The notes under the pieces are model-generated. The model was not told where the DNA came from. It did not search any database and was given only the letters and a program-made list of their open reading frames with translations. Below are positions 4,380-38,830 of a stretch of 64,000 nucleotides of DNA, in pieces. The position numbers were made by a program, and so were the translations under genes. The stretch is from Nemertoderma westbladi (Eukaryota; Animalia; Xenacoelomorpha). Where the stretch lies: contig JAUCBJ010005335.1 of the NCBI GenBank assembly GCA_032718475.1, positions 1 through 64,000 of the forward strand. The letters are read 5' to 3'. Each line of letters starts with the position of its first letter. Within the stretch, counting starts at the first letter, position 1.

Positions 4380-4714
4380 TTGGTTCTGATTGTGGTGTAG
4401 GCAATAAATATAGTTTAATATTGTTTTTGGTAAAAACAATAACAGATATTGCTTCTGGATTGCGGTGTAAGCAATCTAGTCGAAAGTACCGGTCGACCGG
4501 AAACCTGTAGGCCTGACTGCCTGATCATCCGAACCGGTACTTCCAGCAGGTACAGCAGTATTATTCGATTTGATTATTATATGCCGGTAGGTCTTAATAA
4601 TTAATCGGGGATGCCTGGTTTTTATTGGGATTTTACTTAGGCCTATTTCTGTCAGTTTTATTTATTTGTAGGCCAGTATTGAGCAGAAGGCGTGTAAGCC
4701 TGCTCAGATTGTAC

Positions 4715-5280: not shown

Positions 5281-6627
5281 ATTTATTATTCAGAGTTTAT
5301 GCTATTATTCGCAACATTCATATCCCCAAGTTTATTCCTACAGTAATTGTGTTTGTTATACATACCGTTATAGTTAAACTAACCCCGGTACTACATCAGG
5401 GCTGCTCGGCGTAGGTAAAGACTGGTGATTTTGTGCACCGGTCACTCCAGCAGATGCCGTGGTTCTTTTAGCTGTTCAAGTATTTTTAACTACTAATTAT
5501 TTGTTGTACAAGTACTTGTACCTAATTTAGGGTTTAGTGTACAGTACTTTCCGAAGGTGATTAGTGTGTAGGCAGTATATTTGTGTTGTAAAGTGGTTAA
5601 TAGGCACGTTGGTTCTGGTAGACCGCGGTAATTAATCTCTAGGTAGGGACACTCCGTGATACATAACGTAGTACCTATAGCGATATGGTTATAGGTCGTC
5701 AGGCGGTGGTATTTTCCTATCTGGACAGCGCAGTATATTTACTACTACTTATTATTTTCAAATACCGTAGTAACCTGTCCGTTGTAATAACCAGATATTC
5801 TAACCCTTTGTTAGGCTGGTTAGTAGACTTCTTGTAAAATTACCCTAAAATTCGTATTTGTGTATTTGTAATTAAATTTTTGTGTTTATTTAGAGATTGT
5901 AATCTCAACCCGAATTGTACGTAATTTGTAGTATTAAGTAACTTAGGTAAATTAGAATTATTTGTTTTAGTGTCTAACAAGTAGCACTCCACTGAGAGCG
6001 CACAGCTTATGTGTAGTGACTCCCCCAGAAATAATAACATTTATTTCAAACATTAACAAAACCCATTAAACGGGTATATATATATTATAAATCAACTCAA
6101 ACGATTTATAAATAGTAGGCCTGCCATACAACAATTAGGTCTCAATATCAGTTGGACTACTGCTTAAATAACGGCAATAAAGTAAGTTAAAGTAACCAAG
6201 TAACCCTTAAAATTCAGAAATTCAATTATTCTAAAATAATTGACATACCGGTATTTACAATAGGCTTATTATATTTATTTCTATAAATTTTAGGTTGAAA
6301 TCATACTGGTATTCTGTAATTAATTCTAGTCTGTAATTATACTTATATATATACATTATAAGTGTAAACTGCATACCGGTATCCACGATAGGCCTATTAT
6401 ATATTTATATATATTTGTGCTAAAATTACCTACCGGTATTCTGTGATAAACTAGTCTGTAATAATACTTATATATACTATAAGCATACCGGTATACTAAT
6501 ATATTATATATCACGCTACACTGAGTAGCAGTATCGGTAATTAATTACTAGGCTAGCAGTTAACACTGAATTACTAGACTTGCTTAGACTGTAATATAGC
6601 AGTAGACATTCAACTGTGTAAACAAAC

Positions 6628-9600
6628 ATGTCTGATACTAAGCGGAACCTGTCAGACAGTTTATTAGATGTAACTATCTGCGACTCAGATAGAGGTGTAG
6701 AACCGTCTAGTTCTAAGTTCAGTTCACCTCCCACTGTGAGGAAGGTCATCCCTCCATTAGTATTAACAGAACCTAGGCTGGTCCAACATCGTAGGTCTAT
6801 CATAGGCACTCGAGCTCAGGTTAAGCGGGACCAAGAAGCAGCGGAACAGCAACAACCCGCAAGCCAAGAACTTATTTCTGAGCGGCCCGACAGCTCCAGT
6901 AGTGAAGATACTGTAGAGCTGACACCCGAGCGCGGAGCAAGGATGACGGATGCGGTTTATTCGGATCCCCTTCTCATCCTTCCTGCAGCCGTACTCACTA
7001 GGTTATTGATCGCGGTGGAAGAACACCAGATCGATTGGGCGAGAAGTAAGCGATCAACTAAAGATAGTTATGAGGGATACACAAGGGAATAACTGAATTC
7101 TATGGTCGAGTCGCAATGGAACTTCCCCGGACCCAGACTCCCGTTTGATTTATCAGAAGCTGCCTGGGAAGACATACACCGGATGGGAGTAGCCAAGGAA
7201 ACCATCGATCCAGCTGTGTGGAAGAGGTCCGCAGCCGGATACGCACAGGGATTCTTCAGCTCTATGGAGCGAGTAAAAGAACAACTGTTTCAACAACCTC
7301 AAGGACCTCAAGAGCAGGGACAACTGCTTTATCAAGTTAGAGAAAGAATTCTGCGAATCAGGCTAATATTATCAGCCTTTGAAGAGGCTTCTAAAAGAAG
7401 ACAAGACACGTCGTTGCAAGTTGCCGTAAAGACTTGGTTTCAACGGGTGAGTCGCCAGGTTCAAGGAACAGCTCAGTGGAAAGCTCAGCTGGAGGAGCGC
7501 TCAACCCATGGAGAATCAACAGACGCTACTTTTTCCCAAGTGGAAAGTGAAGCGACGGCAGAGAAACCGCATAAGAGGGATGCCATTGACATCTATCTGT
7601 CAGACTATCAGCGTTTTTTGGGAGATGAAGAGTTGAGGAGAAGGCTAGATGGACTTAGCCCTAATAGTGAAGGAGCACAGCGTGTGCTTGACGCCATCGA
7701 CGTGGATAGGTTAGCAGCGAACCAAGCTAAATTCGATGAACAACTCCGCATCGCTAGAGACCAAGAAGAAAGGGTGAAGAAAAAACGCATAGAAGACAGA
7801 AAGAAAGCAGCAGTAGCAGCTGCAGAAGCCGAAAGAGAAGCGGCAGCGGCAGAGGCAGAAGCGGAAAGAAAAGCGGCAGCGGCAGAGGCAGAAGCGGAAA
7901 GGAAAGCAGCCGAAATGGAAAGAAAAGCGGCAAGAGCAGCGGCAGAAGCGGAGCGGATAGCAGCTGAAGAGATTGCCCAATTAGAATTGGAAAATATTCA
8001 GGAGAATCAAGACTGCATAAATAAACAGTTAACAGCTAGTAATATGCAGATGATGAATCGATCTACTCCCAAAAGACAGGGATATACATCATCTGAGGAA
8101 GGCGATACCACCGATACTGAAGGCAAAGGAAATAGATCTCACCTAAGCAGACGCAAAAGAACATTCCACCGTCAGAAATTGCCTGATTTGCCTCCAGCTG
8201 TTAGAAGGCAACTAAATAACACCAACTTAGGTAGTACAGAACCCACAGACCAAATAATTACAATAGAGAGACTCCCTACTATAGTAGATGAGCCTGAAAT
8301 AATTAGGCCTGTTCCCGAAGCCACCCTTTCGGTCGTAGAGACACCTGTACTCCCTGAACCTACCTCTCAATTCCCTTTGCACAGCACTAAGCTACCTGTG
8401 CCCAGCAGAACAGCCCATGAGACAGTTCATGCCCTGGACTCCGAGCGAAATATTCATGATTTGTCGCCCGTTGTCCCTCGTCCGCCCGCTACAACGTTGG
8501 CGAATCCCGCTTCGGTGGTCGAATGGGTGGATGAGAGACGACGGGGGATGGATCTCCTGCTCGGACAGATGCAGGAGACCGTTCAGCAATTCAAGGGCAC
8601 AGTAAGGGAAAGTAGATTAGAGTTGCAAGAAGTGCAGCAAAGTATCGCGCTAGAACGCGATAAATTAGTAAATACACAAAAGGGTATACCAACACCCCCC
8701 GTAACAATGTGTCAACCTGTTAGGTCTGAAGTATCTCATGGCAAGGTGTGGAGCCTACACGCATCTATACTGCTAGCGAAGTAGAAACTCCTATAGTGAA
8801 CCCTATTAAGGGTAATTATAGACCTGTTGATAATGATATTCCCTATAGACCGGATCATAATCCGATAAATTTATATACCGATAACTCGATATTAAATAAC
8901 ACGATGGCCCAAGAAAGTTTTACGCGTCAAATGGCTAGAACCGAAGCCCGGCAAGCGGTAAAGGTGGGAGAGATCGTCAAGTTCAATGGAGATGAGATGA
9001 AATGGTTACCTTTTAATGAATATTACAAAGATAACATACAGAACTCTGTGCTATCTAATGGAGAGAAACTTAGATTCCTCATCGAGTGCTTGGAAGGATC
9101 TCCCAAGTTAATGGCGTTAAAGTTTATTGGACATCCAGACGGATTAAGACAAGTTTGGGATACACTAAACATCAGGTATGGTAATAGGAATAACATAGCT
9201 GGGTATTTGTATGCAAAGTTGGTAGCGCCCCGAAAGTTTATTAGCAGCGGAATTATAGAGTTTTCCGATGAGATTCAGGAGATCTGCAGACAATTAGATT
9301 GGCTAGGTAAGTCTCATGAGTATCAGAATGCTATGGTTATTAGAGCAGTGGCTTCTACTTTACCGAAGGGTGGAGTAGGTACACGCTGGGATAAGAAAGT
9401 GTTATATATGATGGAACAACAACGACGAGACCCTACCATGGCTGATCTCATGTCATTCCTAGATGGAGAAGTGAAATTACAGCTCCTGAAACTGTCCAGA
9501 GAGAAGACACCGGAAAACAAGGTAAGTGAAAAACCCGTCGCTAGGAGAAAGGTAACACCAGTGTGTTATACAGATGATGGCGAAAGCCAGACTTCTCAAG

Positions 9601-12600
9601 GAGAAGATAGCGGGAAAGACACTGACAGATCTTATTACGTAAATAAAATGCCTAAAGATCAGGTAAGTAAATTCAAGTCTCGAACAAATGACAGGAGAGA
9701 ACAGGTAAGAAAAACTCCTCCTACGTCTCCCAAGAGAATTCAGGTGAGAAAGCCCGAAGAAAAGACAAGTGTACACAATGTTACTCAGAGTAAGGTAAGT
9801 AACATCAAACCGAAATGTGCACTATGTGATGGGACCCATCGCTTAAATATGTGTGATGAATTTCTAAAGAAATCATTAACTGAGAGACGTGAAGTCATGT
9901 GGGACAAGCGGTTGTGTTATAATTGCCTCAGACAAGGACACCAACGGCGAACCTGTTACTCTGACACAAGATGTGCCAAGTGCGGTGCGAAACATCATAT
10001 CTTGTTGCACACTGAATTCGAGCGAAATAGTCCGAGTCAGGTAAGTGATTCCGAACTACATGTCCAATTCAGTGATGTGAACGACACTGATCAATCTGAG
10101 ATGGAAGGATTCTATACAGACGAGTTCTCCGACGAAAACGAATCCTGTTACACGATAAACACCACAGTGTATCGAGCACTCATTTATGAAAAAGATACAG
10201 ACATTGACCTCGCTCTAACTACTTCTGATCGACAACCATCTTGGAAAGCGCCAACTTCCAATGTAGGGATTAGAGAATTTCCTGTGGTACAGGTAAGGGT
10301 CCACGGACCAAAAAGGAGTTATGTAGTGAACGCCCTCCTTGACTCCGGTAGTACAGGAACATTCATCGACAAAGAGCTAGCCGAGGACATATTCGCTGGA
10401 CAACCCAAGTTCCGAACTAAGCTAAACATGTCAGGAATTATGCAAGTTTGGAAATCCACAGTAACAGCGGATTATATGTAGGTGCGTTGTCCACCCCCCA
10501 GGACGAACTAGGAGAACATAGCATAAGGTCAGTGAAAATGGTGGCTATAAAGAACTTCGCTACTACTCAAGCAGACCTTTATAATTGGGACGAGGATGAG
10601 AGCATCCAACATCTTAAGATACCTCGATTCCAGACAGATTATCCTGGAGTGCAAATACTCATCGGTCAAAATGCGCATGAAGCGCTCGAGACATTGGAGA
10701 AACGACCTGCTCAACCGCAACCTCTACAAGTTTATGCGGGAAGAACTAGAGTAGGTTGGTACTTTACTGGCCCTTCCCGTAGAACTCTCATGGAAAGATT
10801 ACCGAAAGATCAGGTATATCAAGCGCGAGAATGGGAAGTTGAGAACAGTGAGTTCGACGATCCAACTGAGGGAACTCCATACTCCTCAGACAACGACGAT
10901 ATACATCAACTCTTTGATGAGGAGAATGCCATCGATCTCCTTAAGGAAAGCGAGACTTGGCAAAATCAAGTGAACTTATGTCAACTCCTTCTTCCATCCG
11001 AGCGAGACGACTATAACGACGAGCTTAATGACGTTATTGAACGTTATAATGCCAAGACTCGGGATGAACACGCCGTGAGATTCTTTACTCAAGAGGTCGT
11101 AGAGCCCAACTCCTACGATAAGGCCCTATCGGTGGAGGAAGAAAGAGCCAAGCAGATCCAAGCGACAACTACTCGTTTTCTTAAAGATCAAGGTAGATAT
11201 GAGATCGGTCTTCCTTTCCGAAAGCGAGAACCAAAGTTCATTAACAACAGACCTTTGGCAGAGAAAAGAATTGCTCAACTACATCGACGCCTTACGGCAA
11301 ATTCTTCAGCTAAAGAAATGTATAAAACACAGTTGAAGAAGTTTATTAGCAAGGGATATGCGGAGCTAGTACCGGAAGAAACCCCTATAACTGAGAGAAC
11401 GTATTACTTAACTCACCATTACGTTCCCAAACCCGGTAAACCCCATGAAGTACGAGTGGTGTTTGACGGTTCCGCCCTTTATATGGGCCAATCTCTTAAT
11501 TCTGAATTGTTACCCGGACCCAACTTACTCTAATCCTTGTTGGGAATACTATTAAGATTAAGACAATACTCCATTGCTTTCGCCTCAGATATAGAAGGCA
11601 TGTTCTTACAAGTCAAAGCGCTGGATAGGGATCGAGATAGCCTACGATTTTTGTGGTGGCCTGAAGGAGACCTCAATAAGAAACCGGTGGAGTACTGGAT
11701 GACCATCCAAGCTTTTGGGATAATCTCGAGCCCTTCAAACGCCTGTTCCGTGGTACGCACCACTGCGGATGACAACCGAGACGCCTTCTCTAAAGAAGTG
11801 ATCGACAATATCAAACGAGACATCTACATGGACGATAATCTAAAGTCCCTTCCATCAGTCGAAGAAGCCATTGAGGTCGCTAAAGGAACGGTAGAGTGCT
11901 TAAAAAGAGGTGGATTTCGATTAACTAAATTCACTAGCAACTCCCGTGAGTTTCTGGAGTCGATCCCGGTAGAAGATCGAGGAGCAAAAGACCTAGATCT
12001 AATAAAGGATGATCTCCCAGAAACTAAGACCCTTGGTTTGAAATGGGACACAGAAAGAGATATCCTGTTTTTCCAACTAAAACAGCGAGATAATCCAGTT
12101 CGGACTAAACGGATATGTTTGAGTATCCTGAGCACTTATTTCGATCCATTGGGATTTATTAGCCCAGTTATATTGATTGCTCGGAGTTTAGTACAACAAA
12201 TGTGGCTTGAAAACCACTCATGGGACGATCCACTTAAGGGAGAATTATTAAAGAAGTGGATGAAATGGGAAGATTCTCTACCAGCCATCGAAAACTTCAT
12301 AATTTCCTGTTCATATTTTGGTCATGTTCTCCCTACGTATTCATATCAACTCCATGTGTTTGGAGACGCCAGCGATATGGGAATAGGTATAGTAGCTTAC
12401 CTAAGGGTGGAAACTCCGGACGGAATCAAAGTTGCCTTGGTTACCTCTAAGGCATTGATAAACAACAAGTTGAAAGTTCCTCGAGCGAAGTTAAAAGCGG
12501 CTCTATACGCTACAGCCATCGGCCGGAATGTAACAGAACAGATCGACTATCCCCTGGAGAAAACTGTCTATTGGACCGACGCTTTACTCGTGTTGGAGTA

Positions 12601-14664
12601 TATAACCAATGAAGTCTGTCAGTTCAGCGTCTTCGTTACCAACAGAGTAGCTATTATACTCAGTCGCACGACGATGGATCAATGGAGACATTGCCCCGGA
12701 ACGATTAATCCAGCGGACATCGCTTCCAGGGGAGCAACTCCACAAGAACTGGTAGATACTCCAGACTGGTTAGGTGGACCCGACTTCCTCTACAAAGAAG
12801 AAGAAGAATGGCCTCCTCATCTTACTACAGCAGAAATTAGACAGGCCAAGGGAGCGGAGAAAGTCAAACCTAAAACTCAGGCGAGTAAATCGAAGTTATT
12901 CAAACCCACAGTGGATCTGTCTGTACTACATACTTCCGGAGACGACGCTTTGGATCAGAAACCCACAGCCACAAATAAACCCATTGTGGAAATCCGTGAT
13001 AAGGATTGGAAATCTGGCATACCAGACGTCTCGCAAGGACTCTCACCCCTTCTGCAGAGAGCGATACATCACTACAGTTCCTGGAATCGGCTCTGTAAGG
13101 CCGTTACATATTTAAAGAGATGTTTTCACCATCACTACTCTGGGATGAAAACAAAGGGTGATACCGCTCCAATCACATCAGTGCAGGTCCATGTTATTAA
13201 AGACCTTCCTAAGTATAAGGTACCCGACAAGTTTCTGAAGGAGAAGATCAGTTATCAGGAGCATGAAGAAACCAACAAACAGATGCTGAGACTCTTACAA
13301 TGCTATGAAGATTCCGATAAGTATTTCCTGTTGTTGAAAAATCCACAGATGCGCTTAAGGGATCGTTTCTCTAGCACAATGATAGATGGGTTGATACGTG
13401 TTGGAGGAAGGTTAACGAATGCCCCATTATCCTTTGATACTAAGTTCCCCATACTCATTAGAAATCTTGAAATACAAGTCAAGATGATTGTAGATGTTCA
13501 CAGCAAACTTTATCATGCTGGTAGAGAACGAGTTCTTAGCGAAATTCGAACTCGCTATTATTTTTATAAACCCCGTAGAGCTCTGAACCAAGTTCTTAGG
13601 AACTGTATACCCTGTAGGAAAGCATTCAGTAGTATTATGAACCACCCTTTACTAATACCGGTATGGATTTATTTGGCCCTATTGAAGTATATCGTGCTAG
13701 GACTATAGTCAAGAGATGGTGTGTAATCTTTGTTTGTATGACTTGTAGAGCCATCCATCTCGATATGGTGAACGATTTATCTACCAACAGCTTTCTATTA
13801 AGCTTACGACGACAGATCGCTCGCTTTGGCACTAGTAACACGATGAGATCTGATAAGGGAACCAACTTCATTGGTGCCAACAATGAAATCAAAGCTTACG
13901 TCAAAGATTGGAACCAAAGACAGGTGGACGACCAACTACGAGTAACAGCGTCTAGTTGGACCTTCAACGCCGCCGACGCCCCTTGGTGGGGAGGAAGTTG
14001 GGAGAGATTAATAAGAAGCGTGAAGACAGCATTTCATTTTATAGTGCCTTGCCGCGCTTATCTCACCGACGAACTTTTGCGGACGTTAATGGAAGAAATC
14101 GCCGCCTATCTCAACGAGAGACCGCTTATGCCAGTCTCATCGAGTCCCGATTCCCTGGAAGCGCTAACACCCGCGCACTTCCTACTGAAGAAACCTGTAG
14201 CCATGCTCCCACAATCGGAAATCACAGACGGAGACGAATACTGCCGACAAACTTGGCAACTCATGCAGTTGTTATCCCGTCGTTTCGCTGACCATTTCGA
14301 AAAACATTATCTGCCCACGCTACAACTTCGAACTAAGTGGTTTGCGCAGCAAGAAAACGTCAGCGCTGGAGACATGGTGCTTATTGTCGATGTGGATCTT
14401 CCACGTAAGCGGTGGCAGACAGGTCGTATAATCGAGACGCACATCTCAGATGACGGTTTGGTGCGATCGGTAGAACTCGTCGTCATGCGACGTAACTTCA
14501 AGAAACCGGGAATTGTCTTCGAGACGCAGCAGCTCAATCGCCCGGTGGGACGTTTATGTTTACTGGAAAGAGACAGAGAACTCTCCGGAAACTATGGGAG
14601 ACAAGATACTCTTCCCACGACCACCTCCCTAATCCAACAAACATCTAGGGACTCCCCAACTTAA
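6628..14664 (+). pseudogene. pol: BEL/Pao gag-pol polyprotein of E1, disrupted
   Basis: Fragments 6628-7092, 7102-8784, 8748-10481, 10448-11533, 11537-13708 and 13663-14664 are colinear with E2. Stops at 7090 and 11531; frameshifts at ~8740, ~10478 and ~13640. Confidence 0.93.
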
Positions 14665-16294
14665 CAACGGCTGGAGTGGGTGTGTGACCATATTACTTTA
14701 TATTTGTATTTGTTTTATTTTTATATTTATGTATGTAGTATTATGTAATTTTATTTTAATCGTTTTATTTAATTTTATTTAGTAACATGTTATTTTAGTG
14801 ATCATTTAGTAGATTAGTGCAATATATTAGTGTTTATTACGTACGTAATTACTTAAAATATATATTTAGTGCGACGGCGAGAAATAATTATTTTTCTCTT
14901 TCCTTACTGTCCGTATCATATTATAAATACGTGACTACAGTAAGATGAAATATCCGTACTTATTAAAGTACAATAAAGCCACTACTATATTCAAGTATTA
15001 TTGGTAGGCAGAGTATTAGGAATGCAAAGTTCAGATCCTCGTGTCTCGGCTAAACCAAGCTCTGGGTAGACCTTGGAAACGACTTGCCTCTTCACACTGA
15101 CATTGCTTCGTGCGATATTGCTCTCATACCGTATATTAAATAATACATATAGTAGCGTGATGTCCCTTTAACAGTAGCGTATAACGCAAAATAAATCTGT
15201 TGAACCCTTTGACCATCTGCAATTCTAGTCGATTAAGATATCGCGGCACCCACCGATATACTTGAAAGACAAAATTCTAGAATCAGTGGTTAACGTTCTG
15301 GAATAAACTGGTGCCCATCCTAAATATTAATTATTAATATTTACAAAATCTGTCAAATTTTAGATCCTTTAACATTCTAGTCGATTAAGATATCGTAGCA
15401 TTTACCGATACTCTTAAAAAGACAAATTCATAGAATCAAGGATCCCAGTCCCCAGATATGCTCTGGAATCAAATTGTGTCTATTTAACATTAAATAATAA
15501 AATTTACGGGAATAAATTTAAATTCAGATATTTCAATGAATTTAATAAATTGTCATTTTGTACAATTTATAACATTCCCAAAATTCCATTAATTAATAGA
15601 TCATGGGAGCGGAGATTCACTCTATTAAGTGTATTTGTGTGCGAGAATCTCCAATGTATAGTCAATAGCCGATAAAATTCATAGAATCATGTATAAAGGG
15701 GATATTGACCATTAAAGAATTACTATTAAATAGCATCCCAGATCTGTATGCATGAGAATTACCCTAATTCTACCGCTAGCTTTCCATAATGTCACCATGG
15801 CAACAACCACGCTAGAATTAGAAGTGAGTTAAAAGAACAATAGAAGGCATGCCCCATTGAATAGCATAGGGAATAAATAGCGCACTGCTAGTATCCAAGG
15901 ATACATAATAAATACAGTGACATTCTGGAAGGTACTGACTAACGGACAAATGGCCCGAATGTGTGCAGTTTGTTGCAGTTGTGTTGAATTTGTGCGTTTG
16001 TAGGTGAATGTTACTACTAAGGTGTGTTTACAGTAGCGAGTCGCAATTGTGAAAGTAACCCTAACTCTCCAAGAAGAACCTGCAGTACATCTAAGCCTTT
16101 GGGACGGACAGTTAAGTGACTTGTGCCGGTTATCGTTGTCGTTGTGTAGCTACATCGTTGGCGAAAGCACAGCGACGACGGTACATCAGCGCTGAGGATC
16201 TTACACTGTCCGGGGGCAAAAGAGGGGTAGGCAGCGACGCCCGCTAGCCTAATATATATAAACTCATTATAATATTGATAAACTCATAGCAGAT

Positions 16295-19200
16295 ATGACT
16301 GAGTTGATAGAAGATGATCTTGGCATCAGGGAGCGATATACTCTACCTTTACAAGCGTTTGTCGATAGCTTGATACGCGGCGATGCTGGTCCAACTACTA
16401 CGGAGGATGATGGTCGTTATATCGAACCGCTAATGTCCCCGGAGCAACTTACGCGTGAATTGGACTATAGAAAGTTCACCGCTCGCTATACGCATCGTAA
16501 TGGTACGTATATGGACTTCTTAACCACTGGCCATCCTATCGATTTACACGACACGGACGATGTGGATACCGAAAGGGAAATGGTTTTATTTAAATATCAT
16601 ACCCAGCGGAATCGGAACGATAAGCCAAGAATAGAACACGAGAACTCTATTCGAAACAGACTCGAAAGAGAAGACGTTGAAGAGCCGGATAAACGTAACG
16701 ACTTCAACGATTATCTGGAATTCTTGAGAGAAACATACCTCAATATTGCCAGTCAACAGAATCTCGAAACTCGATATCCTCAAGGTATATATCATAATCC
16801 TATGATAGAACTCAAACGACTCTATTTCACTATGATGTATCTTACCGCCGATCGACCGCTACCCGTTGTCCCGGATAGCTTCGAACAGATGGAGGAATAT
16901 TGTAAAACTGGAGAACGATCACCCGCGTTTCCTCTGCAAGACATGCGTCTTTGGTATTACTGCGACGAATGCCCTAGACCCAATCAGCAAACGGAAAGAC
17001 ATAAACATCCGCGGAGACGTTGCGCTAAACACAGTTTTACACGATATACTTACGGGAGTTTCGAGCGAAACCTGTTCGACGTGTCCCCTGCGGTCGCTCG
17101 ACTCAAGCGATCCTTGAACAAACCGATGATCAGAGTTCCGGAATACTCGGTCAGACCTCCGCATTCCTCAGTTAGACCTCAAACTCTTGACCCTAATAGT
17201 ATCACGGATCCTCCCGAACTGTACTCACTGTTCAAAGATCTAGTGTTACCCGAACAGTTGATCGGTGGCACTCCGGTAGTAGGCTCACGAGACATTCGCC
17301 AACCCTACCTAGCTGGATTGGGACGTGGTCATCTAATATCACCATTTAACCCATACAACCGTCCCGGCTTCACCTCTATCCAACCCGTTACGGAAGTCGA
17401 AGAGAGCGTCGTACGAAATGCATTAGACGCTATTTGGCAGAAAATCGGAAAGGGAACGTACGATTGTTTGGAGAAGCGTAAATTGCAGCAACAAGTCCAA
17501 GCGGTGAAGGAATTAGCTTTACCCCAGTTCGATAGAGAAATACAAAATCTCGAGGAGGACATCGAACGTGGAAGAACCTACTCTTTACAAGAGTTTCTAG
17601 ATGAGCGTCTACAACAACAAGCGGAGGAGAATCAGCTCGAGGAGAGACATATAGAACTGGATGAGAGAGAAGAAGCGGCTTTAGCTCAACCCGAAGTGCA
17701 AATCCTTATGACGGATCTCTACTCTAAAACCATTCTTCATCCCTCGATGGCTCCCCATTTCGGAGACAAACTTTTTGCGACGGCACAACCCCAACCGGTT
17801 GATATCAACCTAAGATCTCGCGATCTTATCGCCGACGCTCCTCTGTTGCAGCGTCCGCCCATCGAACCCGCTCGTGTCGATGGTATACTCGTTGAACCTC
17901 CGGACAATAGAGCAGATCTTGTCCGTCGCATGGTACACGATGTAAACATACGCGCTAGACCTTTACCGGACTCGTTTTATGGGATCAAAGATCACCCTTA
18001 TTACGTCAATCTAAAACAATATTACATGGTAAAACCGGAAGATCCTACACATAGTCTGAAGTTTCTACCGTTAATAAATCCTCTCGATATTGTCGAACTC
18101 GAACAACTGCAGAAACATCTGGATCAGTTAGTTAAAGTAAACTCGTTTTGAAAACCATATAATGTTTCCAGGATAGAGAAAGAAACAATACCTCCGTATA
18201 ATCTTGATGGATTCATCAAAACTCGTTTAGTGCACTGGAATCTTGATGTGTTATTCGAGGAGGAAAGAATACAACAATATGGAGATGTGGAAACATATAC
18301 CACACAATATTTAAAGTATAAAGACCTGCCTAATGCTAGCGAATGTGCTACCTTGTGGCATCCTGTGGGAATGACACTCGAAAACGCCACTAAAGAATAG
18401 AACGAAACTCTTAACGTTATCGAGATGTATGGAGTTGTCACTTATGATAACAAAGGTAGCGTTCCGGTTGGAGAACTTGGAACTACGCGGATGATACATA
18501 TACGAGGACTCGCTGGTTCTACCCACGTATTTACTCGAGCGTGTTCCGACGTTATTGATTATTCTTTTGAAACTCTTACTGAGATACAAAAGAAACTCCG
18601 ACATGGACAATTTGAACTCGCGCAGCGTTACGTCACCGACACCGAGCGCAAGCCGGCCATGGGTATCGATGGATCGATGTTACCCCAACCCGTGCTCGAG
18701 ATGCTGTTTAACGAAGGAATCCTTAAAATCGGCTCAGCTGTTTATGGAGACCTACAGAACGACTTTCGGAATATGGAGAACATTCCATACCCCTTCGTTG
18801 ATACTCAGCTGATTGCTCCTTGGGCAGAAGGCCGAGGTTTCTTCCGCACTACGTATGCCAATACACCCAACGGAATTACCAAAGTACAACGAACCTCCAT
18901 TGGACATCTTGCCTTTCAAGAATACGGATGGAATTTCAAGGTTGGAAATCCTATAAATTACCAACAAGTATACGGAGATCATTATTCTCGTTTATACTTT
19001 GATGGACCATTGACCGCACCTGGCGCCGTGTATAGCTTTATGAGTGTTCCACTTCGTCCCTCCTTAGCCATATACACGATCTTTGAAAACGCAGCACTTG
19101 CCGGTTGGCTAGCCGATGTGTGCAGTCGTACCATACGCGCCCATCCCTTAATACTTGGAACCAAACTCACCAAGTTAGATGAACACAATAAATTCATACG

Positions 19201-20548
19201 CTTTGAATGTTTCAGGCGCTTTCTGACTCCGTTCCGTAACGTTGATAGTCAGTTCAAGGACTGCGCTCTGACCAAACTCAGCCTGAGAGACTCGGCGGCG
19301 GAGAAGCTAAACAGCGCGGGATTTGCCCTTTTTCAGGACGTTTGTATACAGAACTTGCACTCATCTGTTATACAAAGACCCCGAATACCCACGGGTTATT
19401 CTGTCGTCGAAGTTCAGACAGTGGGTCCGCTTGCGGAGACAGCCGCACCTACCTCAGCTATGCAATTGGAAGACGAACCAATATGCTTAGAAGCTGAAGC
19501 GATTCAGCCTACAGCGCCCCGGAGCAGCGATAACGACTACGTCTTAGAGTGGTATCAAGGTCCATAATGTCTCACCGCATACGATTATCGACACGCTAAC
19601 TATGTTTCTCGAAAACGTTGTCGATTATGCGCATCGAGAGACCATTTCACTCCTATGGACTCAGACGTACCCTGTTCCTATTTCCACGAACAACCAATGA
19701 TGGAGATATATTGTGCGTATTGCAGACTTAATAACTCTCATATTTTTGCAGTCTGCCCCCAATTTATGACTCAATGCCACCACTGTCAACTTAAAGGACA
19801 TGCCAGTTATAATTGCCCCTTTAATCACGATTTAGAGAGCGTAGATGAAATGATTACCCTTCGCTACATCCGAGCTTGGGAAGCTAACGCGGATTTACAC
19901 TGTGAGTCCCGTCATCGATACTACCCTGGACGCTCTTACGAGGGAGTTTACGCGTTCCATCCTTATTTATTAGCGTCTGTGGAACAAAAAACACGCATAC
20001 CGAGTTACGAGCTAATGAAGCGTGTTGGTGAGTGTATTTCCACTAAATTTGTTAGAAGATACCTTAGAAACGTCAATCCTAACGATATTACTTCATACCA
20101 TTTGATCAATTATATCCGTCAAGACCCTGAGTATGGCGATTTATTTATCAACTCGCACCCTGAGTTACAGGAAGTATCTCGACGGCCCTACGAATATCGA
20201 GCCCGAGAACGCGAGCTGGAAAGAACTATTAAACCAAGGAAGTTTCTCACCACTCACGGTCCGCCTACCGCCATTGCCCAGACAACCCGTCAAGGACCCG
20301 TAGGAGCTGCTGTCCTGAGGCGCGCCCTAAAGGCTGTTAGACCTTGCTCCACGGAAGTTGATATCGATCAACCAGGTACCTCGACCGGCGGATACACCGA
20401 TCGCAATCCGAAACCTTCTGATGCAATTGTATTGCACCCTTCACCCAGGAGTTACAGCCCTCCTAGTAAAGTGGCTCGCCCCAAAGAGAAAAGGACTCTT
20501 ACTAGCCTCAAAAAACTGCGTAAACGCCGTCCACGTAAGAAAGACTAA
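16295..20548 (+). pseudogene. Accessory ORF of E1 (~1417 codons; DEDDy exonuclease-like domain, CCHC zinc knuckles, basic C-terminus), three in-frame stops
   Basis: ORFs 16295-18151, 18425-19567 and 19655-20548 share one frame, broken only by TGA 18149, TAG 18398 and TAA 19565 (E2 has CAG at the last). Confidence 0.8.
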
Positions 20549-20618
20549 CTGTTTAGAGTATTTTTATATTTTAGAAACTGTGATTTGTTGTATTTTATAG
20601 ACTTAAATCCCATTTTCT

Positions 20619-20626
20619 GGGAGCGG
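20619..20626 (+). promoter_or_regulatory. Polypurine tract of E1
   Basis: GGGAGCGG directly before the 3' LTR TGT; identical in E2 (47352-47359, minus). Confidence 0.75.
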
Positions 20627-21782
20627 TGTAAAAGCTTTTGCGTAATTAACCGGTTATTTTCCCTTAAAGTACTCTGTAGTTGGTTTACCAGGCATAAAAA
20701 GGCCGTGTCCTTGCTGTACTGGTGTTTTAGAGGACATAAAAGTCATTTCCTCTGTATTTGTACTTTAGAGGACATAATCCGCAATCTCGTGACGCGATAA
20801 GCTAGATACTCTTGAAAACAGTGTCGCTACCATGACGACGGCTAACAGCTGATATTGCCACGTCGACATTTCTTTGTTTCTTTGTTCTCTCGTTGTTCGG
20901 TTGACCAATCAGAGCGTTTTTTGTCTCTGTGTTGGAGGTGGATACAGAACTCAGTAGTTCAGTGTTATGTTTTTGCCCAGAGCCTAAGAACACCGGCTTT
21001 TGGCACCTCCGTGTTTCAGTCTTTAGTCTTACATTAGTAGGCTTAATTATAGAACGTATATCTGTTATCTAACCAAACGAGCTACTTACTTACTCACTCA
21101 CTATCCATAAATTACTAATATTACTGCTTTTGCTGTCGGTTATTCATTATATTTGTTGATGAAATATTATATCGGAATACTGATCAATAGTCAGATACCC
21201 CACCTTCTTGATATACTAAAGGTTAGAGAGACCGGTTACAGATAAACGATTGCGACCTATGTTAAGTGGTTTGAAGTGAATCTAATGCTATTTCATATGC
21301 CCGACATAAATTATATGTTGCTCTCTTTATACGTGACCAAATTTAGTGAAGGTCGGCAGATTAGTGTGCAGTATTGTGCAGCATTGTGTATGAGTGTAAC
21401 TGATAACAAAGCATCTCCTAAAGAATGCGCCATATACGTGAATCTATAGCCTTTTCGTTGTGTCTAGTTTAAGCCATAACTCTGTTTACATATTTAGAGC
21501 GCCACGTCCTAAAAGGAACTGTTAATATTTCCCGAAAGTGAATAATATTTGTCAGAGATTATATATTACGATCAGTCGAATAATACAGTAGGCTTACACC
21601 ATCAATCATTAAGCTCCGAACTCAGTCTCCCGGGTATATCCAACGGGTGAATGATTGCGCATAGACTGGCTTCGGCTAATGTAGTGTATCAAATACTCGT
21701 CATAGGCTAAAGACTATCTATCATCCAAAAGACATTCTAATTTTGGCAGGTTAAACTGTCAAAGGTCTTAAAAGCGCAAACA
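20627..21782 (+). repeat. 3' LTR of E1
   Basis: Direct repeat of 3213-4368, followed by TSD GGTCC. Confidence 0.95.
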
Positions 21783-21787
21783 GGTCC

Positions 21788-23004
21788 AGCTTAACAAGCA
21801 ACCACGTGACGAACAAGTCTCGGCATTTTTTGGCTACTGCACACCTCTGCTTTTGTCTAAGATGGAACACGTGGTACACGTTCCACAAGACACTGACCTC
21901 TGTTTAGAAGAATTTTTGGACATGTTCGAAACATATCTACGAGGTAAACAGAATGTCTCCTTGGATCGGTTGGAGCTTACCTTATGCCGACAACAAGACG
22001 GCGAGAGTTTCGATGACTTCTATACCCATCTATGCGAATCTGCTGCTACAGCGGGGTTACGTTCCATGGGGCACGATGAGTGGATGTCAACCTTAATAAC
22101 TGTCGGCATACAAAATGAAGAAATTCGACAAGATTTATTGGGTAAATTTCCGGCATTGAACCACGATGAAACCGTAAAATTTTGCCGCTGTGAAGAAGCT
22201 GCAAGAATACATCGAGTCAAGGTGAAAAATGTACTGGCTGGGTCGAGTAATAAATCTTCAATGTTGACAGCTGCTTCATCCACAAACCAAACTACTGGTA
22301 AGAAAAAATATAAGGGCCGATATCGATCGAAGAGCAGGAATAGGAACCCGTCAAGTTCACGAGGCCCTCAAGCGGATTCCTGCACTAAATGTGGTTACGA
22401 TAAACACTATGGTGGCAAGGAGTGCCCGGCAAAGGGAAAAACGTGCTCATACTGTCACAAATCCCATCACTTTGCACAAGTGTGTCGAAATAAATCGAAT
22501 TTCGGCAGTAATAACCGGAACCGTAGCAGTTCTCCAAAACCCTCATCCGCCATCCACATCGCCATGGTTAGGCATTCCGCTACTCCATACGTCTCAGTAA
22601 CGTTATTCGACCATGTAACAAAGAAGTCAGTTGGAGACCAATCTGCAATTCCTGATACCGGTTCCCAGTGTACCATCGCCGGTATAGAGCTGCTCCATAA
22701 CCAGGGAATTGACATCGCCAACATTAATCCACCCAGCGAGGAGAAACTGGTGAGTGTAAATGGGAAAGTATTAAAACAGTTGGGTTGTATTACATTTTGT
22801 ATAGTTCTAGAAGGTAGACAGGTTATTGAGGAAGTAAAAATATGTCAAGATGTTGAATTTATGTATCTGTCCCTCAATACATGCAAAAAACTAGGTATTG
22901 TTCCTTGGAGTTTTCCAAAACCCCCTCCATTATGCAGTGAAATGAGAACTGCGACTCACCTATGCTCTGGTTGTCAATCTAACTGTGTACACCCAAATTT
23001 ATAA
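21788..23004 (+). pseudogene. gag: Gypsy gag 3' part plus protease
   Basis: RQQDGESFDDF, CTKCGYDKH..CPAKGKTCSYCHKSHHFAQVC knuckles, PDTGSQCT protease motif. Confidence 0.85.
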
Positions 23005-23156
23005 AGGGATCTCAACCTATTTTTGTACAAACCTCCCACACAAAGTGGATAAATAACTTACCTAAAAATCCTTCCGACAATGAAATAACAAATATTCGCG
23101 AGGAGTTAATTAAACATTATACAACGGTTTTTGATTCAAATATTGAACTGTGGAGC

Positions 23157-25483
23157 ATGGTAGGCTCTACTATTGGTGATCCCATGAGGATCGAGTTAAA
23201 AGCGGATTTTAAACCCTTTGCAGTTCATGCAGCTCGATCTATTCCCTTTGCAAGGAGGGAGCAAGTGAAGAAGGAGCTGGATGACATGGTTGCTGGTGGT
23301 ATAATTGAACCAGTCGGTGACCGCCCCACCGAGTGGTGCCATCCACTCGTTGTGGCAAATAAACCTAACGGAGGGATTCGAATGTGTGTGGATCTCACAA
23401 ACCTTAATAGACAGGTAAAGAGGGTAATCCACCCAACAAATCCACCTCTTAATGTTGTAGCTGACATTTCCCCAACATCCAAATATTTTACCGTCTTAGA
23501 TGCCAAAAAAGGATATTGGCAAGTCGATCTACACCCAGAAGCTAGAGACCTGACCTGTTTTATAACGCCCTGGGGACGGTTTATTTTTCTCCGTGCACCT
23601 ATGGGTTATATTAATACCGGAGATTCTTATAATTTAAGAAATGATTTGGTATTGTCAGATATAGAAAATATTCACAGACTGGTGGATGACATTTTGGTTG
23701 AGGATAATGATTTTAAGATACATACTGACAGAATATGTACTGTTCTAGAACGTTGTGCCAAACACAACATAACATTAAATGTGCAGAAATTCAAATTTGC
23801 TAAAAGTGAAGTCAAATTTGCTGGATACATAGTCACTGATTGTGGAATTAAGGCTGACCCCAATAAAGTGGATGCAATATCACAGTTTCCAACACCCACT
23901 AATCGATCTGAATTGAGATCATTTATGGGACTGGTCCAGCAATTGGCCCCCTTTTCGAATGAAATCAGTAGTGCTGCTAGTCCTCTCCGTGATATAATGA
24001 AGATGAGGAATGATTTTATTTGGACTGAAAATCATAAAACTGCATTTAATGAGGTTAAAAAAGCCCTTGCAGCCCCCCCCTATTTTAACAACATTCAACC
24101 CAAAATCAGAGATAGTATTAGAAACTGATGCGTCACGTACCAAAGGTCTAGGATTTGCAAAAACTAAACTATTCAGACAGTTTTAGATTACTTCAATGCG
24201 GATCTAGATTCCTCACCGAAGCGGAAACTCGATATGCTACTATTGAGTTAGAAGCCCTCGCAATCTTGTGGGCGACTCGTAAATGCAGAATGTATTTGTC
24301 TGGTTTACCCAATTACATAGTAGTCACGGATCACCGCCCCCTCTTGCCGATTTTTAATACTCATACTCTTGATATGGTGGAAAATGTCCGAATTCAGAAT
24401 TTTAAAATGAAACTTAGCGAATATAATTTCAATTTAATATGGCGAAAAGGGAAGGACCACTGTATCGCCGATGCTCTTTCCCGTGCCCCCGTTTCAGATC
24501 CTGACATGGAGGACGAAAATGAGGGGATAATAATGAAGAATATTTCTGCCATTGCTATACAAGCTGCAGTTACAGCCTTAGATGACTCAGAATTTAATCG
24601 ATCGCCGCCATATGTTGATCCTATTCTAGAGAAAATTAACAACGTTGCCACAACTGATGAGGATTATCAGGCTCTAATTAATGCTGTAAAATCTAACTTC
24701 ACACTCCCATTTACTAATAACTCGTTTGTACAACAGCTGAAGGGTACATGGAATGAATTGTCTATAGACGATAACCTTGTCATATTTGGCCGACGATTAA
24801 TTATTCCTAAAACACTCCGTAAAGAGGTCATTGACCGTTTACATGACTCCCATCAAGGTATTGAGCGGATGAAGCGACGATCACGTGAATCAGTTTACTG
24901 GCCTGGAATCAACAGTGACCTCACTAATAGAGTCAGACAATGTTCTAAATGTCAAGAACGGTTGCCTAGCAACCATAAAGAAACATACTTTGCTGATCCC
25001 CCACCATCTAGAATTTTTGAATCGGTTTCTTCAGACCTCTTCTACTATGGTGGAAAATGTTATCTTACATACGTGGATAGACTCTCAGGGTTCCCATTCA
25101 TAGCCAGATGGGCATCCGACCCATCGGCCTCCCAGGTTATTGCACAGGTCCGTCAATATTTTGTGCAAACCGGAGTACCCGTTCGCATGCGTTCGGACGG
25201 GGGGCCCCAATACCAGTCCAAAGAATTTCGCCATTTTCTTTGTCGCTGGGGCGTTCGTTGGGAGCCATCCACACCATACTACCCCCAATCGAATGGACAT
25301 GCTGAGGTTAATGTGCGGATTTTGAAAAACCTCGTGGCCAAAGCCGATGACGGGCGTATAGACACTGAACCGTTTTTACGTGGCCTTCTAGAACTTCGGA
25401 ATTCTCCAAGAATAGATGGCTGTTCACCTTCCCAAATAGTTTACGGCCACCCGCTCCGTTCACAGGTTCCAGCACACTACAGA
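23157..25483 (+). pseudogene. pol: Gypsy RT-RNase H-integrase, frameshifted and truncated
   Basis: IRMCVDLTNLN, LDAKKGYWQ, LVDD, YATIELEALAI, TDHRPL and integrase core; frameshifts near 24080 and 24155. Confidence 0.9.
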
Positions 25484-25920
25484 TTAAATATTCTGTTGTT
25501 GTGATAGACATCGTGCATGATTTTTGATACCTCCAATTTATATATACTATCAATTGGGAGAATGTTTAAAGTCTTATACAGTGTTTTGGAGGATGCTTGC
25601 CGGTGGCTATATGTAATTGCCCTTAAAATTTTATTTAACTCTTATCCGTAGTGGTTTTATCACATTATTGGATGAATAGATCCAAACTGCTAAACTGTAT
25701 AGGATATATGGGTGAATAAGAGCAAAGTACAACATGTGCATAATATGTTCTGAAAAAACATAACGAAGCTTATAGAACAACCCAACAAATTTTGATATCT
25801 TCTTATTAATGTATTCGAATGCGGTTTCCAAAATAATTTACTGTCAATAATCAATCCAAGATATTTTGTTTCTGAAGTTTCTTTAACTACTGTATTATTC
25901 ACTATACTGTATACTGTGGG
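25484..25920 (-). mobile_element. Degenerate LINE (CR1/L2-group-like) ORF2 C-terminal fragment
   Basis: TKYLGLIIDSKLFWKPH / KISKFVGLFYKLR..LYFALIHPYILY..VW / KILRAITYS..LYKTLNILP. Confidence 0.7.
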
Positions 25921-28290: not shown

Positions 28291-28424
28291 CTCTTACCGC
28301 GTAAATATAAGTAAAAGATAGTTCCATCACCTCACCATAACCTGAGCCTACCTACTGAATCTGCTATACTGCTATACTACTGAGTTATACTGATTATCAT
28401 AAGACTGTTATTTGTTTATATTGG

Positions 28425-31400
28425 GTGGTGATGTCACAGATGCTGCATTGGTGCTGCCAGTGCGCAGCTGGTGGCTGCGGTCCCACTAGTCGATGTGGGT
28501 GTGTTCGCGCAAATCGCCAGTGTACCCGGTGTGTCCCAATGGAAACTAGCCGGTATAATAACCCGGTCGTACCTCCCTCATTGCCCACCACCATGGCAAA
28601 CATTGTATTTGACGATTCACTGTCTTGGTCCGCCACTTCAACGCCTTCGTTGAGTGAGAGCAGTGACTCGGAGTTGGACACCACTGTAGTTGAGCGGTCG
28701 TCTGCCCCACTGGCGGTGGCGTGTGGCACGGACTTCATCCCTCCGCCTCCTTCCAATTCCGACCATTTGGAAGCCACTTTCGGCGGGTCCTTGCTGAATA
28801 CTCAGGGTTCTTCACCCGACCCTACATGGGAGAGTCATCATCATCGCCTATGTCGTCTACCAAACCGCCGCTATATTGTCCCTGGAGGCAATGTTGGACG
28901 CAAGATGGTTGATGACATAACAAAGGAGCTGGCAAAACTGTGTGAAGGAGGTTATCCTTCAGAACAACCTCTTTGCTTCGTCGCTATGATTTTTCAATGT
29001 GACCCGGATGTCGTGAAGACCCCAGATGTGCGGTGTACCCTCCTAAGGCGATTAGATACGTGAGAATGGGGTGACTTTGGGCCCCTACTTGTTGAGGCCG
29101 AGTGGTGCAGTAGCAAATTCGTGACTGGAAGGGGTGCAACTTCTGGGAACACATACCGGGTCTACAATCGAAAGGTCCTCGCCAACATGAACCGGTCAGC
29201 TGTGCGGAAAGTCACAGATCGTGACTGTGGAGGTGTTCTCAACCCCGAGGACCAAGCTGAGGGTCAGCCGCTAGGCGTGACCGTACGAGATGGTCTGGAA
29301 CAGAAACACCCTCCACAGATGGATGTCTCCCCTGACAGTTTTGAACCTTGCAGCGATTTACCCCCACTCGAGGGCGTTGATGTGACTGGACAGCTCATCC
29401 TCAAGGCGGCGCGAGCTCTGTGCGGTTGTGCTGGCCCTGTCAGAGGGGACGGTGAGTTCTGGCACACACTGCTGACTCGATACCAGGCCCATAGTGCGCG
29501 GTTGCGTGAAGTTGTGGCTGGGTTGGCACGACGTCTGTGTAACACCATTGTACCCTGGGGGGAGATTCGTGCGCTTCGAGCATGCCGATTGGTTGGATTG
29601 GACAAACAGCCCAGGGTCCGTCCGATTGGCGTAGGGGAGGTTCTCTATAGACTCCTCACAGTCAGCATGGCGATGGCAACAAAGACTGTTGTTGTAACTC
29701 AGTGCGGTGCAGACAAATTGTGTGCCGGGGTGAAGGCCGGAATAGAGGGCGCTATCCATGCAATGGTCTCGATATTCGATGATGAATCCACCGAGGCCAT
29801 GATTCTAGTAGACGCCCGCAACGCATTTAACAGCCTCAGCCGTCCCGTGATACTGTGGAATTGCTGAGTACTCTGGCCGAGATGTTTGAGGTTTCTCTGC
29901 AATGCATATAATGGTCACGCCGCACTGTACCTCGCTGGCAACAACCCACCACTGTGGAGCAGAGAGGGTATGATGCAGGGAGATACACTCACTATGCTGG
30001 TGTATGGATGTGGGTCCCTGCCTATGGTACACTCCCTACACTGTGAACCAGTATTGGCTTCCTCAGATTCGTCTCTCAATTCGCGCACCATCACCCATAG
30101 TCCATCTGACAGTGTATCTCTCAGTGGTGCCCAGGAGGGTTGCATTGCCCAGGAGGGTCACTCCGCATTTTCCCAGTCCATCCCCTTGCTGTCCCAGTTT
30201 ACTCCCACAGTATTCAGTCCCTTTCCCGCATTGTCCCAGTCCAGCCCCATGCTGTCCCAGGTTACTCCCACAGTATCCAGTCCCTTCCCTGCATTGTCCC
30301 AGTCCACCCCCATGCTGTCCCAGGTTACTCCCATAGTAGCCAGTCCCTTCCCCGCATTGTCCCAGTCCATCTTCATGCTCTCCCATGTTACTCCCACAGT
30401 ATACAATCCCTTCCCCGCATTGTCCCAGTCCATCCCCATGCTGTCCCAGATTACTCCCACATTGTCCAGTCCCTTCCCCTCATTGTCCCAGTCCATCCCC
30501 ATGCTGCCCAAGGGTACTCCCACAGTATCCATTCCCTTCCCCGCATTGTCCCAGTCCATCCCCATGCTGTCCCAGGTTACTCCCACAGTATCCATTCCCT
30601 TCCCAGCATTGTCCCAGTCCATCCCCATGCTGTCCCAGGTTACTCCCACAGTATCCAGTCCCTTCACCTCATTGCCCCAGTCCATCCCAATGCTGCCCCA
30701 GGTTACTCCCACAGTATCCAGTTCCTTCCTTGCATTGTCCCAGTCCTTCCCCATGCTGTCCCAGGTTACCACCACAGTGTCCAGTTCCTTCTCCTCAATG
30801 ACCCAGTCCATCCCCATGCTGTCCTATGTTACTTCCACAATGTCCAGTCCCTTCCCCGAATTGTCTCAGTCACTCCCCATGCTGTCCCAGGGTACTCTAA
30901 CAGTGCTCCCGCTCACTCTCATGGTGTCCCTGTCCAGTCCCTTCCCCGCATTGTCCCAGTCCAGTCCACAGGGGTCGCGAGTTGGTTCCACAGTGCCCCA
31001 CACCCAGGGATCATCATCAACTCAGTGCTGGTAAGCGGATGACGCCTCGGCGGCAGGGAGTCTGCGTGGAGTTGCACAGTGGCAGCTAAAGGGCCCCAAA
31101 ATTGGCTACTTCCCCGAACCGATCAAAACTTACCTGGTAATAAAGCCAGGACTGGAGGCGGAAGCCAGGGAAAGGTTCGATGGGAGTGGCGTCCAGATAG
31201 TCACCGGACACCGGTTCCTGGGGGGATATATCGGCGATGCTGATGCTGAGGGACGGAACCAGGTTGTGTCGGACAAGGTTGCGGGGTGGGTGGAACATAT
31301 CGAAAAACTCTTGGAGGTTGCCATGGAGTATCCCCAGACTGCTCACACAGGGATGTCCAAGTGTGTGCAGGCTGAATGGGACTTCCTAATGTGGGTAGTC

Positions 31401-32460
31401 CCAATGGATGTTGAGGATTTTGCCCCTATCCAGACTGCGCTGCTTCGACAGTATATCCCCTCCCTGTTCGGTATCCCATTGGGCCCCTCGGTTGAGGACT
31501 TGGTCCTCCTGCCTGTTCGCCATGGTGGGATCGGGTTGTGGGACCCCCTAATGCGGTTTGGCCATGCCCATGCTGCGTCCACCGAGGGGACTTCCCTTGT
31601 GGTTGAAACTATCCAGTCTGGTCTGCTGCTTCACGTGACCGACCACACTGTGCGGCTGCGTAAAGTCCTCACTGAGTCGCGGGCCGCCCAGGATACCGTG
31701 TAGAAGATGAAAATGGAGTCGGCGCTCGGGGCGCTACCAGCCGAGCGTCAGCGAACCACGGAGCGGACGAGGCGGAACAAGACCGGGGGATGGTTATCGG
31801 CCCAGCCGTCCGATCTGGACAACACAGACTTGGGGCCTGACAAGTTCCGGGACAATCTCGCCCTTTTCTACCAGTTAAGTGCGAGGGGTGCGGTCGCCCA
31901 TTCAGCACCTCCCACGCACTGAGCTGCAAATCCGGGGGTCTTGCCATCAAACGTTATGACGAGGTTGGCCAGGTGTTTGGCGACCTCTTGGCCTCGGCTT
32001 TCGGCCAATCAAGTATCGAGCGTGAGGTGACCCTCGCCCAAGGATACAATGACAGACAGGGGAGTGGCATCGTTTGACATTGCGATAATCAACGCTGATG
32101 CCAGCTCGTACGTCCAGGCCAACCGGTCGACCAAGTCCCTCTTGGAGCAGTGGGCCCGGCTGAAACGCGCGCATTACCGGACCGTCTGCGAAGACCGGAG
32201 GATGTCCTTTACCCCACTGGTCGGTACAACCGACGGTGTATGATGCAATGAGGCAGAGATTCTCGTTCGCCATCTGGCTGAGACCCTTGTCTCGAGACAA
32301 GCTGGGATGGCTGAGAGGAGCCTTGCCTGTGTGAGGGTGGAGTTCGCCGGAGGCTTCAATTTGCTCTCCTCCGATCGAATTCCCTCTGCCTCAGGGGTGG
32401 TCGATGGTTTTGGCGCGGGTCGGGCTTCGGGGATGGGGCAGGTCTGCAGGGGGTTGATCT
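28425..32460 (+). pseudogene. CRE-like RT/RLE ORF with several stops
   Basis: ORF fragments 28425-29063, 29121-29867, 29886-31034, 31266-31703, 31707-31922, 32049-32243. Confidence 0.8.
30163..30965 (+). repeat. 63-bp minisatellite (~12 units) inside the CRE RT
   Basis: Unit translates as PMLSQVTPTVSSPFPALSQSI (21 aa). Confidence 0.9.
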
Positions 32461-38829: not shown

Positions 38830-38830
38830 A

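Follow-up and report, generated by a model that had tools for sequence, protein, structure and literature searches.

Retrotransposons of the BEL/Pao group (Belpaoviridae) are described as elements of 4.2–10 kb that are primed by tRNA at an 18-nt site and whose optional third gene is env-like (PMC8742986). Third genes of a different kind, encoding DEDDy-type proteins with intact residues, are reported for the gypsy-like elements Juno and Vesta of bdelloid rotifers (PMC5408684). One element survey applied a 15-kb limit (PMC3118150).

The element considered here, E1, lies at positions 3213–21782 of a 64,000-nt stretch of Nemertoderma westbladi DNA (contig JAUCBJ010005335.1; the whole stretch is referred to below as the window). 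With a length of 18,570 bp, it is a BEL/Pao retrotransposon of nearly twice the described size, and because it exceeds the 15-kb limit of that survey, BEL/Pao elements this large may be overlooked. Between its pol gene and its 3′ LTR lies a third gene, ORF3, whose coding frame, conservation and possible function are the subject of this report.

An atypical BEL/Pao element and its copies

E1 is bounded by a 5′ LTR at 3213–4368 (1156 bp, TG...CA) and a 3′ LTR at 20627–21782, both on the plus strand, with two differences between them and a short purine-rich tract just upstream of the latter. A 5-bp target duplication, GGTCC, is present on both flanks, so that the LTR pair and target duplication expected of a BEL/Pao LTR retrotransposon are found. 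The gag-pol gene (6628–14664, plus strand) encodes DUF1759, knuckles, protease, RT, Peptidase_A17, integrase and DUF5641, and it is the matches to DUF1759, Peptidase_A17, integrase and DUF5641, with integrase following RT/RH, that identify the element as BEL/Pao. The 18-nt tRNA primer site and 4–10 kb length given in the ICTV BEL/Pao profile are absent, with an 11-nt self-complementary site and 18,570 bp found instead. As judged from its pol domains, E1 is an atypical member of this group. The gag-pol gene is disrupted at five points, of which two are stops and three are frame changes; the LTRs are near-identical and yet the element is broken, which suggests that E1 was inserted recently with proteins supplied by another copy.

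A second copy, E2, lies on the minus strand of the window at approximately 46132–62024 and is 83–89% identical to E1; the two belong to a multi-copy BEL/Pao retrotransposon family. Comparison of the copies bears directly on the primer site. In E1, the 11 nt directly following the 5′ LTR (4369–4379, plus strand) are the exact complement of an LTR segment at 3644–3654 (plus strand), which is a candidate self-primer. In E2, one base pair of this pairing is changed on both sides relative to E1, and neither copy's primer site pairs with the LTR of the other. Shuffled LTRs did as well in 6 of 3000 and 2 of 3000 trials for the two copies. The self-complementary site mentioned in the first-pass annotation is real, and complementarity between primer site and LTR segment of the Tf1 type is present in both copies.

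The gag-pol gene and ORF3 are separated by a 1.6-kb non-coding spacer (14665–16294, plus strand) that begins like a relict 3′ LTR, with a purine tract followed by TGT and an AATAAA approximately 300 nt further on. The motif that follows the AATAAA resembles what we take to be an initiator-tRNA primer site. It does not, however, resemble the terminal LTRs in sequence. Because it is 87–97% identical between E1 and E2 in 400-nt bins while the dS of the flanking coding sequence is 0.41–0.45, the spacer is likely constrained, and it likely carries signals for ORF3 expression.

ORF3 is probably a single gene, with purifying selection at both ends

ORF3 extends from 16295 to 20548 on the plus strand, a frame of 1417 codons interrupted by in-frame stops at codons 619 (18149–18151), 702 (18398–18400) and 1091 (19565–19567). 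The other five frames of the same segment contain 57–98 stops each. The earlier proposal that three open reading frames here are one frame cut by point stops is thus confirmed, and ORF3 is one real gene frame. As had also been noted, the third stop is a sense codon in E2. The second stop is replaced by another letter in all of the contig depth of four of four runs of public contigs (41, 34, 31 and 5 contigs, from three studies); a further run, X5, which comes from another organism and shares 5% of words, was left out. These two stops are not common to other copies, which removes the possibility that they are fixed throughout the family. The frame is also maintained in diverged copies, where none of the 12 indels listed falls within ORF3, which accounts for 4254 of the 7401 nt (57%) compared, and 28 of 29 contig pieces within ORF3, among the pieces listed, are gap-free.

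The ORF3 of E2 (47430–48872, minus strand) consists of an N-terminal segment (48509–48872) joined to a C-terminal segment (47430–48502). The missing 2804 nt correspond to E1 positions 16664–19467 (joint 16663–19468) and include the nuclease-like part described below; E2 is therefore uninformative on that part, a correction to the first-pass annotation. The same joint is present in run X4 and a different one, 17656–20414, is present in runs X1–X3 of the public contigs. Since these deletion joints recur, the shortened copies must themselves have been amplified.

Between E1 and E2, dN/dS is 0.089 for the N-terminal end of ORF3 (122 codons, 95% bootstrap interval 0.036–0.170) and 0.091 for the C-terminal end (355 codons, 0.061–0.129), values that describe the two ends common to both copies, outside the nuclease-like domain. 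Elsewhere in the element, RT/RNase H has a similar ratio (0.093), integrase a lower one (0.039) and three parts of gag higher ones (0.14–0.23); a PR/RT row with a ratio of 2.5 is out of frame and was left out. ORF3 has been under purifying selection at both ends, with ratios far from 1, and we reject the idea that it is neutral cargo.

Nor does ORF3 have the properties of an env gene. The highest 19-residue Kyte–Doolittle mean is 1.19, with 0.46 near the N-terminus, and the signal peptide and transmembrane anchor of an env protein are not seen. The absence of a hydrophobic segment rejects an env identity, in agreement with the first-pass annotation. With its position between pol and the 3′ LTR and a dN/dS of about 0.09 at its ends, ORF3 emerges as a BEL/Pao third gene that is under selection and is not env.

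Several features of the predicted protein had been recognized by eye and are present in the translation. A Cys/His cluster at residues 223–246 (16961–17032, plus strand) is a possible zinc site for which Pfam returned no family match. A Glu/Gln-rich stretch at residues 394–466 (17474–17692, plus strand), again read by eye, appears helical and coiled-coil-like. Three zinc knuckles beginning at residues 1109, 1140 and 1161 (19619–19816, plus strand, comprising 19619–19675, 19712–19756 and 19775–19816) match zf-CCHC_3 with an E-value of 0.0011, and all of their Cys and His residues are kept in E2. The protein ends in a basic tail (20510–20545, plus strand) that is also kept in E2.

A probable DEDDy-type domain in the ORF3 protein

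The central part of ORF3 had been likened to DEDDy exonucleases of the WRN/EXD/Mut-7 type, and an assignment to the DEDDy proteins of the RNase D/WRN type is supported by the RNase D models of NCBIfam, by a WRN-like profile and by the homolog P0002. The putative domain spans residues 713–942 (18431–19120, plus strand), with ExoI at 713–721, the ExoII core at 795–840 and ExoIII at 919–942. The motifs quoted earlier are all in place, with VVTYDNKG at residue 714 and the LPQPVLEML..ILKIGSAVYGD..FVDTQ block at 796–838.

In a blind NCBIfam scan of 18401–19150 (250 aa), two RNase D models were the sole matches (E 0.013 and 0.034, residues 798–843). A profile built from 51 bacterial WRN-like exonucleases, which had been selected with a motif of the family, matches residues 796–838 in the ExoII core with P 3.4e-4, a value reached by 0 of 2000 shuffles but one that comes from a hypothesis-led test of a single profile and is not significant at library scale. 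Six of seven other proteins from the window do not match this profile and one matches at 0.024; bit scores are 47 for E. coli RNase D, 21 for Pol I and 6 for ORF3. When aligned to the WRN-like set with hhalign, ORF3 alone gives a probability of 78 (0 of 52 shuffles) and a two-sequence profile of ORF3 and P0002 gives 95 (0 of 212 shuffles). These profile matches to ORF3 reach the ExoII core only.

Broader searches returned little. Pfam identified no exonuclease family for ORF3, no match reached a curated cut-off, and PDB sequence searches gave no significant nuclease, RNase D ranking fifth of six with an E-value of 1.5. Word-index searches for homologs passed 0 of 1519, 0 of 7992 and 0 of 68 candidates, locus scans found no relatives in metagenome or viral contigs, and PHROGs and phage tblastn searches gave nothing significant. 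An Atlas search produced no usable match for the nuclease-like domain and one cluster at 0.77 for residues 1–618. For the putative DnaQ-like fold, two AlphaFold models are of low confidence (pLDDT 31.9 and 29.9), and Foldseek found no match at E≤0.001 with them; five EXD2/Egalitarian rows (E 3.6–8.3) are not counted as evidence given models at pLDDT 30–32. A fold made with 40–54 bacterial WRN-like rows was discarded because it would be circular and because, beyond the core, the alignment was wrong. The sequence similarity to the DEDDy family is thus weak but convergent and lies below curated cut-offs, and we consider it very probable that ORF3 contains a DEDDy-type nuclease domain.

The homolog P0002 and the catalytic positions

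Among 1.84 billion representatives, HMMER found a single match, P0002, a 648-aa singleton with 30% identity to ORF3 (E 6.9e-5). Its motifs are D62-x-E64, D130 and Y229-x3-E233. PF01612 is the sole family returned for its domain, weakly (E 0.036 for the domain and 0.2 for the whole protein), and NCBIfam gives no nuclease match. P0002 has the same order of domains as ORF3, a nuclease-like part followed by three knuckles, and the knuckles of the two proteins match at E 9e-5 even though they were absent from the search query. P0002 begins approximately 55 residues before ExoI and has no counterpart to ORF3 residues 1–618; approximately 35 more residues separate the third strand from the ExoII helix in ORF3 than in P0002.

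The ExoII aspartate can be placed most readily. D819 aligns with the Asp of both the WRN-like profile and P0002, and on these alignments we regard its assignment as firm. For ExoIII, the P0002 segment fits ORF3 best at 919–942 (score 26, the next being 13), yielding Y927-x3-E931. The earlier statement that the ExoIII acid appears replaced probably reflects a wrong register: in this placement, made by pairwise alignment beyond the reach of the WRN-like profile, the Y-x3-E arrangement is kept in ORF3 and likewise in P0002, with Glu rather than Asp as the acid in both. The ExoI motif is less certain. The strand and hairpin of P0002 jointly fit best at residues 713 and 730, a result equaled in 113 of 2000 shuffles, and MAFFT prefers another register (753–760). 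In the register at 713–721, D718 is kept and K720 occupies the Glu position, so that E1 would lack the D-x-E that P0002 has as D62 and E64. The proposed replacement of the ExoI Glu by lysine thus stands in what is still the best placement, but that placement is not significant and MAFFT argues for a different one.

Even the decayed E1 copy therefore appears to keep three of the four acidic positions and the tyrosine (D718, D819, Y927 and E931), and P0002 has all of them. With the ExoIII Y-x3-E apparently kept, the case for a pseudo-nuclease depends on one residue, K720, of a decayed copy. The first-pass annotation had left the choice between a pseudo-nuclease and a decayed copy; these alignments slightly favor the decayed copy, of a nuclease that is probably active, over the pseudo-nuclease. 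For the same reason, the balance tips just in favor of nuclease activity in intact copies.

Proposed role and alternative explanations

We propose that ORF3 is a selected, non-env accessory gene whose product combines a DEDDy 3′–5′ exonuclease with three knuckles and trims RNA 3′ ends, likely in trans and against small silencing RNAs, a composite reading to which we would give an even chance. ORF3 would be expressed from its own transcript by way of the conserved spacer, the knuckles and basic tail of the protein would bind RNA and the DEDDy-type domain would trim RNA 3′ ends. The protein may act in trans, possibly on host small silencing RNAs; action in trans is suggested because copies without the nuclease-like domain were amplified. 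Host DEDD proteins operate in small-RNA pathways, and it is by analogy with them that counter-silencing may be the likeliest target, albeit at low odds. Small RNAs as such are a plausible but doubtful substrate. A bolder scenario, which we think rather unlikely, is that a giant self-priming BEL/Pao lineage captured a member of an undescribed exonuclease family of mobile elements (Y-x3-E, three knuckles) behind a relict internal LTR that is now a promoter, and that the protein is an active counter-silencer in trans that trims small RNAs.

The main rival to an active enzyme is a pseudo-nuclease of DEDD descent that, like EXD1, would bind RNA and do nothing more, in which case ORF3 would be an RNA adaptor or sponge. 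The lysine (K720) that stands where ExoI should have Glu, the Glu that takes the place of the ExoIII Asp and the approximately 35 extra residues ahead of the ExoII helix would all fit such a protein, and there is precedent in inactive EXD1 and in Egalitarian, which works without catalytic residues (10.1101/2025.08.03.668247). However, D718, D819, Y927 and E931 appear to be kept and P0002 has all four acids, and E1 is decayed at many sites (three ORF3 stops and five gag-pol breaks), so the lost acid may be peculiar to E1; we regard the binding-only protein as possible, though it is not the reading we favor. It is improbable that the exonuclease likeness arose by chance and that ORF3 joins its zinc knuckles to a middle domain of some other kind. 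All of the family E-values exceed 0.001, the structure models are at pLDDT 30–32 and the exonuclease hypothesis was picked by eye ahead of the targeted profile tests, but the blind library scan gave RNase D only, and the independent homolog P0002 returns PF01612 alone for the domain, with its motifs in order.

Two further explanations retain the exonuclease and change its setting. If the first stop were fixed in the family, ORF3 would encode two proteins, one of 618 aa that resembles no known family and another that holds the exonuclease-like part and the knuckles. The position of that stop (18149–18151) lies outside the sites listed for the public contigs, and the 648-aa P0002 starts close to ExoI without a match to residues 1–618, as a separate protein might. 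Against this, the same frame runs on both sides of the first stop, the other two stops are not common to copies and the contig pieces that span it, three of which are listed, are gap-free; a split gene is accordingly a fairly unlikely arrangement. Alternatively, the nuclease could act in reverse transcription by trimming the 11-nt self-primer at its 3′ end or protecting it there, an idea that the Tf1-like self-complementary site, with its two-sided change between the copies, would fit. Yet the Tf1 primer is made by RNase H alone (PMC7175516), and DEDDy ORF3s are known from element groups unrelated to each other (PMC5408684). Primer processing is thus a weaker rival than the binding-only pseudo-nuclease, and we give it little credence. 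The exonuclease acting on RNA 3′ ends in trans remains our preferred reading of ORF3.

Comparison with known systems

To our knowledge, few transposon-encoded defences against small-RNA silencing exist. A selected nuclease–knuckle cargo in a third, unrelated group of retroelements would point to repeated capture of RNA 3′-end enzymes, and would provide a concrete protein to assay. Neither an exonuclease ORF in BEL/Pao nor a self-priming BEL/Pao element was found in the literature searched, a body of work with Repbase entries and subscription papers outside its scope.

E1 shares with Belpaoviridae its 1.2-kb LTRs, the PR-RT-RH-IN order, Pao-specific Pfam domains and an optional third gene, but it is 18.6 kb rather than 4.2–10 kb long, has an 11-nt self-complementary site in place of a tRNA site and has a third gene that is not env. 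The primer site resembles that of the self-priming Tf1/sushi elements (PMC7175516 and PMC6317226), where an LTR segment likewise pairs with the 11 bases that follow the 5′ LTR. Those elements belong to Ty3/gypsy, and some to copia, whereas E1 is BEL/Pao and its self-priming is predicted from sequence.

Among host proteins, the ExoII core of ORF3 matches the RNase D and WRN-like profiles, and the motif order of RNase D, WRN/EXD2, Nibbler/Mut-7, EXD1 and Egalitarian is kept. ORF3 differs from these proteins in having no detected HRDC and in its additional knuckles and retrotransposon context, and its probable kinship is a general one, to DEDDy proteins. The pairing of nuclease and knuckle does exist in a host enzyme, an RNase D relative named as a CCHC-type domain protein (PDB 7c42/7c45), which we take to be the trypanosome RNase D.

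The closest parallels are the ORF3s of Juno/Vesta and Athena/Terminons (PMC5408684; PMC6431247), which are likewise non-env genes that follow pol, encode a DEDDy domain of the RNase D-like type, lack a transmembrane segment and have a function that is putative there as it is here. The searches returned no rotifer ORF3 sequence and gave no sequence link to these proteins. Compared by description, Juno and Vesta differ in being gypsy-like rather than BEL/Pao and in a motif reported as DEED, as against the Glu in ExoIII of E1. The E1 gene is further set apart from the rotifer ORF3s by its 1417 codons, three knuckles, Cys/His cluster and helical stretch. It is likely that a DEDDy-like cargo gene, of a kind already known from bdelloid elements, is now found in a new element group, BEL/Pao.

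Genomic setting of the two copies

The 3′ LTR of E1, the 18 570-bp BEL/Pao element, adjoins a broken gypsy-type gag-pol (21772–25504), and E1 is therefore likely nested inside another element. E2, the second copy of the family, sits between the two units of a 519-nt direct repeat (45613–46131 and 62024–62542; 99.6% identity) that far exceeds a normal target duplication in length, and a diverged third copy of this repeat lies at 63139–63596. Another gypsy-type element, identified by domain matches to gag, RT, RNase H and integrase, occupies 33593–39404 on the minus strand and is bordered by 22/30-nt tandem repeat arrays. A decayed frame at 28359–31703, split by a 63-nt tandem array (30037–31029), appears non-LTR element-like by eye and has no Pfam match.

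ORF3 and its upstream spacer

The non-coding spacer between gag-pol and ORF3, the putative exonuclease gene, is 97% identical between E1 and E2 at 14800–15200. Its start (14665–15030) resembles a relict 3′ LTR, with a purine tract, TGT and AATAAA, the last followed by a tRNA-primer-like motif; comparison of this segment with the terminal LTRs revealed no relationship. Judged from sequence, pyrimidine-rich AG sites close to 16000–16035 and an AG immediately 5′ of the ORF3 start region (16270–16297) are possible splice acceptors. Among the public sequencing runs, X1–X3 contain a second ORF3 deletion joint (17656–20414) with ~29 filler letters, and X5, from another organism, contains 5% of ORF3 words, which does not in itself point to a wider range.

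Primer site and 5′ leader

A ~288-nt tandem duplication (4714–5294) within the long 5′ leader is common to E1 and E2, and strong hairpins occur downstream of the primer site (z −3.6). The primer site itself is an 11-nt self-complementary sequence, located at 4369–4379 in E1 (plus strand; LTR partner at 3644–3654) and at 60781–60791 in E2 (minus strand; partner at 61516–61526). The primer site–LTR pairing differs between the two copies by a two-sided change, and in both its self-complementarity resembles that of Tf1.
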